Source of the DNA: Minisyncoccota bacterium
GTDB lineage: Bacteria > Patescibacteriota > Minisyncoccia > Phycocordibacterales > UBA9973
DNA: 64,000 nt
Direction of reading: 5' to 3'
NCBI GenBank assembly: GCA_041659205.1
Contig: JBAZYS010000001.1
Coordinates: forward strand, 54,090 to 118,089
How positions within the stretch are numbered: the first letter of the stretch is position 1; each line of letters starts with the position of its first letter. Shown here in pieces: positions 23,075 through 24,025 of the stretch. The translations under genes were made by a program, and so were the position numbers. The notes under the pieces were generated by a model, which did no database searches, was not told where the DNA came from, and worked only from the letters and a program-made list of their open reading frames with translations.

Positions 23075-24025
23075 ATGGCAAATAGGCACCTTTCAAGATC
23101 AATAGTGCTCCAAACACTTTTTGAGTGGGACTTCCTGCCAGTGCAGGCAGGCTTGCCCAATGACAAAAAAAGCACTAATCCTACAACTGAGGAAATAAAA
23201 GACGTATTAAAGAGAAATTTGAAAGAATTTGCTCCTGGTCACGAGGACGAGGCTTTTGTGTTTTCGCTTATTGAACAAGTATTGAAAAAGCGCGCGGTGA
23301 TTGATGAAATTATAGAAAAAGCTGCCCCCGATTGGCCTCTAGATAAGATTTCAATTATTGATAGAAATATTTTGAGAATTGGTTTAGCGGAACTTATTTT
23401 TGGTGACAGAAGTGAGGTGCCTCCCAAAGTGGCAATAAATGAAGCTATCGAATTAGCAAAAACATTTGGCGGAGAAAATTCTAGTAAATTTGTGAACGGT
23501 GTCTTGGGCGCAGTCTATAAAGAAATAGGGGAACCTGGGAAAGAACAAATTAGTAAAAAGAAAAAGTTAGAGGAGCCCGTAGACATTACGAAATTGCCAG
23601 TCGAGAGCCTGGGCGGAGCATTGGTGTATGGAAGGAGAGACAACAAAGACGATGGGGATATTTTGTTTGCTTTTGTTCACGATGTTTTCGGTTACTGGAC
23701 CTTATCTAAAGGAAAAATAGAGGCAGGAGAAGATGTAAAAGAAGGCACCATTAAAGCAATTAAAAAAGAGATAGGACTTGATATTGAGATAGAAGAAAAG
23801 TTAGGGGAGAATGAATACGTCGCTTCCCATCCAGAAAAAGGAAAAAGTTTAAAAAAAGTAGTTTATTTTTTGGCAAAGAGCGAACATAAAGAGCTTGAGC
23901 TTGAAAAGTCCGGTGGACTTGATGGAGCAAGGTGGTTTGCCCTTCCTGCTATTCCAGAATTACGTATTTATAACGATATAATTCCTTTAATTACAAAAGC
24001 AATTGAAATTATAAGCAAGAAATAA
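23075..24025 (+). CDS. nusB: NusB antitermination factor fused to a C-terminal Nudix-like domain
   Basis: The NusB core is [46 protein letters not shown]. The C-terminal [23 protein letters not shown] is a degenerate Nudix box (G-x5-E-x7-[RK]-x-U-x-x-E-x-G-U). Confidence 0.8.
   Translation: [316 protein letters not shown]
23134..23151. repeat. GC palindrome cctgcc-agtgca-ggcagg inside nusB 5' region
   Basis: The stem cctgcc/ggcagg is related to 20971 and 41091. It encodes LPVQAG. Confidence 0.65.

Follow-up and report, generated by a model that had tools for sequence, protein, structure and literature searches.

A NusB antitermination factor fused to a Nudix-fold domain with a degenerate Nudix box in the Minisyncoccota

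Few bacterial transcription factors are as conserved as NusB, which as a rule is a small protein with one domain. The 64,000-nucleotide (nt) stretch of Minisyncoccota DNA analyzed here (contig JBAZYS010000001.1 of GenBank assembly GCA_041659205.1, positions 54,090 to 118,089 of the forward strand; hereafter, the window) encodes a larger version, in which a NusB-like half and a second domain share a single open reading frame (ORF) at positions 23075 to 24025. An earlier reading of the DNA sequence, referred to below as the original prediction, proposed that this second domain is Nudix-like and carries a degenerate catalytic box. The locus raises the question of whether such a fusion is real and, if so, what a Nudix fold with a damaged catalytic center contributes to an antitermination factor. 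The encoded protein begins with MANRHLSRS, and its gene is organized as follows.

23075 to 24025, plus strand: NusB-linker-Nudix fusion gene, one ORF of 316 amino acids (aa) plus stop, ATG start
23075 to 23530, plus strand: all-helical NusB domain, residues 1 to 152 (Pfam, TIGR01951, PDB matches, Foldseek)
23138 to 23155, plus strand: six-codon in-frame insertion P22 to L27 (PVQAGL) in a NusB surface loop (gaps in the homolog alignment; predicted local distance difference test score, pLDDT)
23531 to 23599, plus strand: Lys-rich interdomain linker, residues 153 to 175 (low pLDDT, partly conserved sequence)
23600 to 24022, plus strand: Nudix-fold domain of the Ap4A/Ap6A-hydrolase type, residues 176 to 316 (Pfam, PDB sequence matches, Foldseek)
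23711 to 23779, plus strand: degenerate Nudix box, residues 213 to 235 (read off the translated sequence)

The N-terminal half is an orthodox NusB

By every in silico criterion that could be checked, the N-terminal domain is an orthodox NusB, in agreement with the original prediction for residues 1 to about 150. The Pfam NusB model (PF01029) covers residues 7 to 149 (E = 2.1e-33; 115.9 bits against a cutoff of 23.1), while the NCBIfam equivalog TIGR01951 for nusB scores 122.7 bits against a cutoff of 88.35 and is matched over profile positions 2 to 130 of 131. Among PDB sequences, this half retrieves the NusB proteins of T. maritima, A. aeolicus, E. coli, and M. tuberculosis with E values of 1e-18 to 1e-11. 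An AlphaFold2 model made from 75 homologs (mean pLDDT, 81.8) contains eight helices within residues 4 to 151, and Foldseek matches this domain to T. maritima NusB (1tzv; target template modeling [TM] score, 0.83) and to 1eyv (0.79 to 0.80). The conserved C-terminal block of NusB (residues 120 to 145) is near-identical to E. coli chains 5ms0_L and 3imq_A, and F16 aligns with E. coli Y18 at the N-terminal aromatic position; both the block and F16 are invariant in the family. The E. coli counterpart of N135 is D118; T. maritima NusB and the 3imq chain share the Asn.

The N-terminal 152 residues thus have the fold common to the NusB proteins of E. coli, T. maritima, A. aeolicus, and M. tuberculosis (3d3b, 1tzt, 3r2c, and 1eyv). 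Compared to these, the fusion protein has approximately 165 extra C-terminal residues, comprising linker and Nudix domain, and a variable loop (residues 21 to 44) with a six-codon palindromic insertion. The linker is predicted to be disordered (pLDDT below 50 for residues 154 to 167), and its residues E153, P154, K156, D170, and L174 are invariant among close homologs.

A NusB fold fused to an rRNA-related module has a known precedent in RsmB/Sun, where a NusB-like N-terminal domain is joined to an rRNA methyltransferase. RsmB models match residues 44 to 164 of the window protein weakly, at 20 to 53 bits against cutoffs of 269 to 540. We rejected an identity as RsmB/Sun 16S rRNA methyltransferase, since the scores are far under the cutoffs, the matches involve the NusB-like part only, and there is no methyltransferase domain. 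Unlike RsmB/Sun (best score, 53 against 319 bits), the window protein passes the NusB equivalog.

The C-terminal half is a Nudix domain of the Ap4A/Ap6A-hydrolase branch

The C-terminal domain of about 150 aa is Nudix-like, as originally predicted, and is recognized as such in both sequence and fold. The Pfam NUDIX model (PF00293) spans residues 205 to 297 (E = 1.2e-10; 42 bits against a cutoff of 21.1), so that the domain profile search proposed with the original prediction places NusB and NUDIX alike above their Pfam gathering scores. A phmmer search of the PDB with this half returned T. thermophilus Ndx1 (1.5e-5), human diadenosine tetraphosphate (Ap4A) hydrolase (1.9e-5), and Aquifex aq_158 (4e-5). 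Ndx1 of T. thermophilus is a diadenosine hexaphosphate (Ap6A) hydrolase.

In the AlphaFold2 model, an all-helical domain (residues 4 to 151) and an alpha/beta domain (residues 176 to 315) are both folded; the low-confidence parts are linker residues 154 to 167 and a loop at residues 26 to 35 (pLDDT below 50). The relative placement of the NusB and Nudix domains is undefined, because the predicted TM score of the model is 0.51. Foldseek ranks the Aquifex Ap4A hydrolase 3i7u first among PDB structures for the Nudix domain (target TM score, 0.87; root mean square deviation, 2.3 Å; 26% identity). Ndx1 (1vc8) reaches a target TM score of 0.83, and many Nudix structures are matched with a probability of 1.00. 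The ranks after 3i7u are taken by mycobacterial MutT1/Rv2985, Ndx1, DR1025, CT771, the C. elegans and human Ap4A hydrolases, and the Nudix domain of NrtR. The RNA-acting Nudix enzymes BdRppH (3ees), Dcp2, and NUDT12 are also among the fold matches.

The C-terminal domain descends from the Ap4A/Ap6A-hydrolase (RppH-like) branch of the Nudix fold. Hydrolases of this branch (3i7u, 1vc8, human NUDT2 3u53/1xsa, and C. elegans 1ktg) are its best matches, at 25 to 26% identity, and the residues with which they bind phosphate and stack adenine align with its W-T-x-x-K-G motif, its R-W motif, a C-terminal aromatic residue, and the Tyr that follows strand 5. Unlike these enzymes, the window protein has a box without the Arg, the Glu of R-E, and the first Glu of E-E, and the domain is joined to NusB rather than standing alone.

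The fusion is real and lineage-wide

The two-domain architecture is general among relatives. All 120 homolog clusters listed (75 to 100% identity) carry both PF01029 and PF00293. Their source names are limited to "transcription antitermination factor NusB" from Candidatus Paceibacterota, Nomurabacteria, or Patescibacteria, where Paceibacterota corresponds to the phylum Minisyncoccota in the NCBI taxonomy. Public records name the fusion protein "NusB" only, which leaves a gap in its annotation. In full-text literature on NusB with Nudix/MutT or with Patescibacteria/candidate phyla radiation (open-access papers only), we found no description of the fusion.

The original prediction had called for a survey of related genomes. 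A species survey with one genome per GTDB species yielded at least 599 pattern matches, of which at least 578 were confirmed, and 80 loci were fetched. The fusion is encoded in every one of them, as a full-length single ORF in 78 loci, that is, in all those left uncut, and in truncated form in two that are cut by contig ends. The gene order thrS (minus strand), rpmF, nusB-nudix, rnc, and smc is complete in 61 of the 80 loci, the others being cut by contig ends. The rnc gene lies downstream of the fusion in 79 loci, and a contig end cuts the remaining one; Pfam backs the identities of these neighbors.

An assembly or sequencing artifact, or a frameshift joining two genes, could in principle imitate a fusion, and the original prediction had pointed to a GC palindrome near the 5' end as the place where this might have happened. 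That palindrome, CCTGCCAGTGCAGGCAGG at 23134 to 23151, is the sole point in favor of an artifact. It sits in frame inside the ORF (codons 20 to 26), encodes LPVQAG, and lies within the NusB domain, approximately 130 codons 5' of the linker that joins the domains (residues 153 to 175). Of 121 homologs, 109 have a gap at the insertion, among them the closest (P0002 to P0005), whereas more distant ones contain it. A frameshift or pair of genes at the palindrome was rejected: the palindrome amounts to an in-frame indel of six codons within a disordered loop, flanked on either side by sequence that aligns with the homologs. With a single ORF in all 120 listed clusters and all 78 uncut loci, and the same single ORF in hundreds of independent assemblies, we give the artifact practically no weight. 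We conclude that the fusion is real and lineage-wide in Nomurabacteria/Paceibacterota.

A search with the Nudix domain alone extends this picture. Exhaustive HMMER searching of 1.84 billion cluster representatives gave 654 matches only at an E value of 1e-3 or below, so the domain belongs to a small, distinctive Nudix subfamily. The best 150 of these 654 (representatives at 50% clustering) comprise 41 full-length NusB-Nudix fusions (280 to 360 aa), 18 apparently standalone complete Nudix proteins, and fragments. Pfam confirms the NusB-Nudix architecture down to 27% Nudix identity (cluster P0263). The result is a NusB with a permanently attached nucleotide-pocket domain in hundreds of species-level genomes of ultrasmall, mostly uncultivated bacteria.

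Two further architectures were observed in this subfamily. P0227, a metagenomic protein of 379 aa, joins a Nudix domain of the same subfamily, with a degenerate R-K..E-E box, to Sigma70_r4 and Bac_DnaA_C helix-turn-helix (HTH) domains. This is a second, independent joining of the Nudix branch to a nucleic-acid-binding module and hints at a branch that was recruited more than once. P0189 (577 aa) has a partial NusB followed by Nudix, preceded by approximately 315 extra N-terminal residues without a Pfam match, and may represent either a longer architecture or a gene-calling fusion.

Catalytic residues of the Nudix box turn over

The canonical Nudix box reads G-x5-E-x7-R-E-U-x-E-E-x-G-U. The corresponding residues here are G213, E219, K227, A228, I229, K230, K231, E232, I233, G234, and L235. 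The partial replacement of R-E-x2-E-E by K-A...K-E that the original prediction described is read directly in the sequence: K227 stands for Arg, A228 for the Glu of R-E, and K231 for the first Glu of the E-E pair, which leaves E219 and E232 alone and the window protein without an intact Nudix box. The recommended alignment to characterized Nudix enzymes gives these substitutions a structural counterpart. In HMMER alignments, A228 stands opposite the Ala present in chains 1xsa and 4ick/4ijx of human Ap4A hydrolase; since entry 4ijx is titled "E58A mutant," A228 is the position that was artificially mutated from Glu to Ala in the human enzyme. E232, the last Glu of the box, falls on the Glu that was altered in 1vc9, the E50Q structure of Ndx1.

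Box decay varies among relatives. The canonical box is present in 35 of 121 close sequences, alongside RA..KE (24 sequences), RE..KE (18), KA..KE (10, the type of the window protein), KI..KE (9), and others. It is found in 33 of 79 species-level sequences and in 5 of the 41 deep fusion clusters, compared to 13 of the 18 apparently standalone relatives. Decay is therefore not fixed, and hydrolysis appears dispensable rather than universally absent.

The history of these positions was traced on a neighbor-joining tree of 79 taxa, built without the box columns, on which changes were counted by Fitch parsimony. From an inferred root state of R, E, and E at positions 227, 228, and 231, the minimum number of changes is 13, 22, and 17, respectively. 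Freely varying positions change 38 to 42 times, and E232, W208, K212, Y248, and Y299 do not change at all. Lys or Arg occupies position 228 or 231 in 41 of 46 degenerate species sequences but never both at once (0/79, 0/121, and 0/123 in three sequence sets; Fisher P of ~0.001 to 0.002, uncorrected for phylogeny). This pattern is consistent with one basic side chain filling the former metal site and is suggestive only.

The original prediction had left two options, an inactive nucleotide-binding module and a noncanonical hydrolase. An enzymatic role would take the form of an active RppH- or Ap4A-hydrolase-like pyrophosphohydrolase that NusB brings to the 5' leader of pre-rRNA, where it would convert 5'-triphosphate (5'-ppp) or nucleoside tetraphosphate (Np4) caps to 5'-monophosphate and, for instance, enable decay of the boxA leader after RNase III cleavage. 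The window protein would then be a weakened or alternative-mechanism version. Ancestry speaks for such an enzyme, the nearest folds and sequences being active Ap4A/Ap6A hydrolases with RNA-acting Nudix enzymes among the fold matches, and so do the canonical box in 33 of the 79 species, the invariant E232, and the conserved rnc downstream. The Nudix enzyme RppH indeed acts on 5'-ppp and Np4-capped RNA (PMC8833179, PMC7044304). Against it stand the residues themselves: in this genome, R-E-x-x-E-E has K, A, and K in place of its R and first two E, with A228 at the very site that was mutated to Ala in human Ap4A hydrolase structures. Across the 79 taxa, at least 22 and at least 17 changes have hit catalytic positions with the rest of the domain still constrained. 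Because catalytic positions turn over without loss of constraint elsewhere, catalysis is improbable as the selected function, and we regard the active enzyme as unlikely. The A228 site, the catalytic turnover, and the invariant pocket-aligned residues favor the first option of the original prediction and disfavor the second.

The Nudix domain remains under constraint

Across the 79 species, NusB has a mean pairwise identity of 0.83, compared to 0.69 in the Nudix domain, 0.62 in the linker, and 0.22 in loop 21 to 44. Outside the box, the identity of the Nudix domain is 0.74 between pairs that both have a degenerate box and 0.69 between pairs that both have a canonical one. The ratio of Nudix to NusB divergence is 1.8 for degenerate-box and 1.55 for canonical-box members. 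For the closest pairs, the Nei-Gojobori ratio of nonsynonymous to synonymous substitution rates (dN/dS) of the Nudix domain is ~0.02 to 0.13 whatever the state of the box, a rough estimate with dS near saturation. The domain has stayed under strong purifying selection after box decay and is therefore maintained rather than a dying remnant.

These values bear on whether the domain is functionless, that is, the eroding product of a neighboring Nudix gene that merged with nusB when a stop codon was lost. Most lineages do lack the full set of catalytic residues, as a remnant would. The mean identity of 0.69 and the 14 checked positions that are invariant in 79 species do not fit with decay, nor does the low dN/dS, with degenerate-box members at least as conserved as canonical ones. 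In addition, all 78 full-length loci have the domain untruncated, and homologs as distant as 27% identity still show the two-domain architecture. A remnant is thus very improbable.

Residues aligned with the ligand pocket are retained

The positions invariant in the 79 species are H202, D203, W208, T209, K212, G213, E232, Y248, P253, G281, D283, W287, F288, and Y299, and K257, K260, Y264, and D301 are nearly so. Ap4A hydrolases bind the P1 phosphate through a His before a conserved Trp, the Lys of W-T-P-P-K-G (human Lys42), and a loop-5 Tyr (Tyr82), and the adenine is sandwiched by human Tyr82 and a second aromatic residue, Phe128 (PMC4734340). Lys94 of the P. falciparum enzyme, whose human counterpart is Lys89, also contacts sulfate (PMC4734340). 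In an alignment at ~22% sequence identity, supported by fold superposition, K212, Y248, K260, and Y299 correspond to human Lys42, Tyr82, Lys89, and Phe128 (Lys42, Tyr82, and Phe128 are K47, Y87, and F133 in 1xsa numbering). Y207 aligns with the P1-binding His position, which is Y or H across the family. As far as the alignment goes, the pocket residues are kept while the residues of the chemistry vary.

Strong conservation combined with dispensable catalytic residues would also be expected of an interface. By analogy to SuhB, a protein of the inositol-monophosphatase fold that is integral to the E. coli rRNA antitermination complex (PMC6614797, PMC6614801), the domain might be a structural or protein-interaction module without a nucleotide ligand, touching RNA polymerase, NusA, S10, or RNase III, and the partial conservation of the linker would suit such a role. 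The invariant residues, however, fall on positions aligned with phosphate and base binding and not on an arbitrary surface patch, and the invariance of E232 would make little sense in the absence of a site for phosphate or metal. We therefore consider a pure scaffold quite unlikely.

With the box lost and both the pocket-aligned residues and E232 retained, noncatalytic binding of a purine nucleoside polyphosphate becomes the most likely function. We favor, with modest confidence, a Nudix half that acts as a mostly noncatalytic nucleotide- or 5'-end-binding module on a working NusB. Several considerations weigh against this. The homoplasy counts come from a quick neighbor-joining tree and are inflated by tree error, although the contrast between positions is still large. 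The E-to-K change (GAA to AAA) is favored by AT-rich composition, and the pattern may partly reflect mutational bias. With a canonical box in 42% of species, the domain may well be an active hydrolase there, and catalysis could be its original function and one that still matters. Finally, the ligand is read purely from alignment to distant enzymes (~20 to 26% identical), and the invariant residues could form a protein-protein interface instead.

A putative role in the Nus complex

If the family membership of its N-terminal half is a guide, the fusion protein would pair with ribosomal protein S10 on boxA RNA in the complex for rRNA antitermination and folding. The Lys-rich linker tethers the Nudix-fold domain to NusB, and at the Nus complex this domain would bind a purine nucleoside polyphosphate noncatalytically or hydrolyze it very slowly. 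One candidate ligand is a free nucleotide of the nucleoside or dinucleoside polyphosphate type, for instance ATP or Ap4A. Another is the 5' end of the nascent leader RNA, triphosphorylated or Np4 capped, on which NusB would already be positioned. Binding would give the Nus complex either a second anchor or a nucleotide-sensing input. We infer all three elements of this scheme, namely ligand binding, the identity of the ligand, and the effect on antitermination or rRNA processing.

RNase III excises the leader of pre-rRNA. The idea of an RNA end as ligand is attractive because RppH recognizes such ends, NusB sits on the 5' leader, and rnc is the conserved next gene. RppH, represented among the fold matches by BdRppH (3ees), is a Nudix 5'-pyrophosphohydrolase and Np4-decapping enzyme that recognizes RNA 5'-polyphosphates (PMC8833179, PMC7044304), and this type of recognition is a plausible ancestral activity of the domain. 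In RppH, the catalytic box is intact and no transcription factor is attached, whereas the window protein has lost two of the three glutamates of its box.

More specifically, the Nudix module might be a noncleaving sensor, within the Nus machinery, of Ap4A-type alarmones or of the 5'-ppp/Np4 end of pre-rRNA, a proposal that we put forward tentatively and as a minority expectation. Were it true, NusB/S10-boxA antitermination, cotranscriptional rRNA folding, and RNase III processing would follow nucleotide status or the state of the 5' end. Such a Nus-factor input is not known in model bacteria and may replace factors missing from reduced genomes. Binding of Ap4A-like nucleotides or RNA 5' ends would in itself constitute a direct physical tie between alarmone/nucleotide signaling, or 5'-end status, and rRNA antitermination and processing. 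The family would then also provide a natural series of active, half-active, and dead members for the transition from an enzyme to a binding module.

The closest parallel in design is NrtR (PMC2330246; PDB 3gz8), in which a Nudix-like effector is likewise attached to a nucleic-acid-binding transcription factor and which Foldseek lists at ranks 16 and 33. Its ligand is ADP-ribose according to the title of entry 3gz8. In NrtR, the partner domain binds DNA, whereas here it is the RNA-binding NusB, joined to a Nudix domain of Ap4A-hydrolase descent. Pfam and NCBIfam scans detect no HTH domain in the window fusion protein. The DNA-binding domain of NrtR is a winged helix. The likeness is best seen as a functional analogy, with no sign of common descent of the two fusions. 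SuhB offers a second comparison, as an enzyme-fold protein located beside NusB and NusE in the E. coli antitermination complex (PMC6614797, PMC6614801). Unlike the Nudix half of the fusion, it is a separate polypeptide, and its fold is unrelated to Nudix.

Genomic neighborhood of the fusion gene

The fusion gene is flanked in the window by the following features.

22763 to 22993, plus strand: rpmF (ribosomal protein L32), upstream neighbor (Pfam Ribosomal_L32p, E = 6e-16; synteny)
23000 to 23074, plus strand: leader in the spacer between rpmF and the fusion gene, with a GC-rich hairpin region, GGGATGCTCATAAATTAT (23028 to 23043), GTTCATTAATTT, and ATG
24056 to 24751, plus strand: rnc (RNase III), downstream neighbor (Pfam Ribonuclease_3 plus dsrm)

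Compared to E. coli nusB, which lies in a ribH-nusB arrangement, the fusion gene is placed between rpmF and rnc, and the latter starts 30 nt past its stop codon. A small GC hairpin on the plus strand, CACCGCCACGGCG (24035 to 24047), lies inside this gap. The terminator scanner calls it terminator-like on the minus strand only, with no T-run after the hairpin on the plus strand, and it may be a processing or attenuation site. Scanning for promoters and terminators around the fusion gene gave nothing exceeding shuffle expectation. Across the 64-kb window, Rfam detects two tRNAs only, with no rRNA and no leader element, and the window holds no second NusB. Bacterial SMC proteins are usually ~1,100 to 1,200 aa long. 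The SMC-family protein encoded 3' of rnc (24768 to 27008) has 746 aa, and the SMC_N profile covers its residues 3 to 731; its coiled coil seems much shortened in this lineage.

GC palindrome, leader, and spacer elements

The palindrome in the NusB loop belongs to a family, CCTGCC[T/A]G...CAGGCAGG, whose perfect or near-perfect copies make up three of the six GC-rich palindromes in the window, in a genome of ~35% GC. The other two copies are located as follows.

20971 to 20988: palindrome copy in thrS (minus-strand gene), encoding LPAQAG
41093 to 41112: palindrome copy in intergenic DNA, 6 nt past the rpsP stop

The core pattern occurs twice in the window, compared to 0.02 occurrences expected. 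In-gene copies encode LP[AV]QAG in surface loops of conserved genes (thrS and nusB-nudix), and other species have palindromes at the corresponding thrS and nusB sites (loci L031, 1607 to 1624; L034, 3562 to 3579; and L052, 3544 to 3564). The nusB insertion underwent at least six gains or losses on the tree. The palindrome may be a mini-element, mobile or arising repeatedly, whose translation is tolerated.

Part of the leader, TGCTCATAAATTA (23029 to 23041), matches 8 of 11 positions of the boxA consensus GYTCTTTAANA (PMC5725501). The core motif occurs upstream of the fusion gene in approximately 14 of 78 species loci, and the window contains one exact copy of it, with three-mismatch copies not above chance. 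In the subset of species that have it, the conserved leader consists of a GC hairpin, GGGATGCTCATAAATTAT, and ..TTC[AC]TTAATTT-ATG, which resembles an rrn-type hairpin plus boxA; it lies upstream of the fusion gene also in L001, L007, L008, L011, L020, L045, and L046. The same leader precedes other, non-Nus genes in metagenome contigs (L099, L104, L114, L126, L152, L165, and L181), among them one whose product starts with MAHTKSAGST, which we take to be L27-like from its N terminus, and others whose products start with MAKKSV. A boxA-like autoregulatory site was considered here but not used as evidence: the motif is found in few loci, and the leader, which also stands before non-Nus genes, is an element of more general use in this lineage. 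The leader is either a lineage-specific promoter/5' untranslated region of translation-apparatus genes or a divergent boxA. Elsewhere in the window, AATGCTCTTAAATTAG at 4768 to 4783, approximately 58 nt upstream of the tRNA at 4841 to 4925, contains GCTCTTAAATT, which agrees with 9 of 11 positions of the gammaproteobacterial boxA consensus and is within chance (9 of 100 shuffles reached as many matches).

In L003, L005, L009, L017, L021, L024, L032, and L039, the spacer between rpmF and nusB contains short tandem repeats arranged as inverted blocks, for instance CTAGGCACTAGGCACTAGG ... GCCTAACGCCTAACGCCTAA, approximately 100 nt upstream of the start of the fusion gene. In L015, L016, and L040, the spacer carries AACTTTATGAACTTT repeats. 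Between conserved flanking genes, the rpmF-nusB spacer varies greatly from one species to the next.

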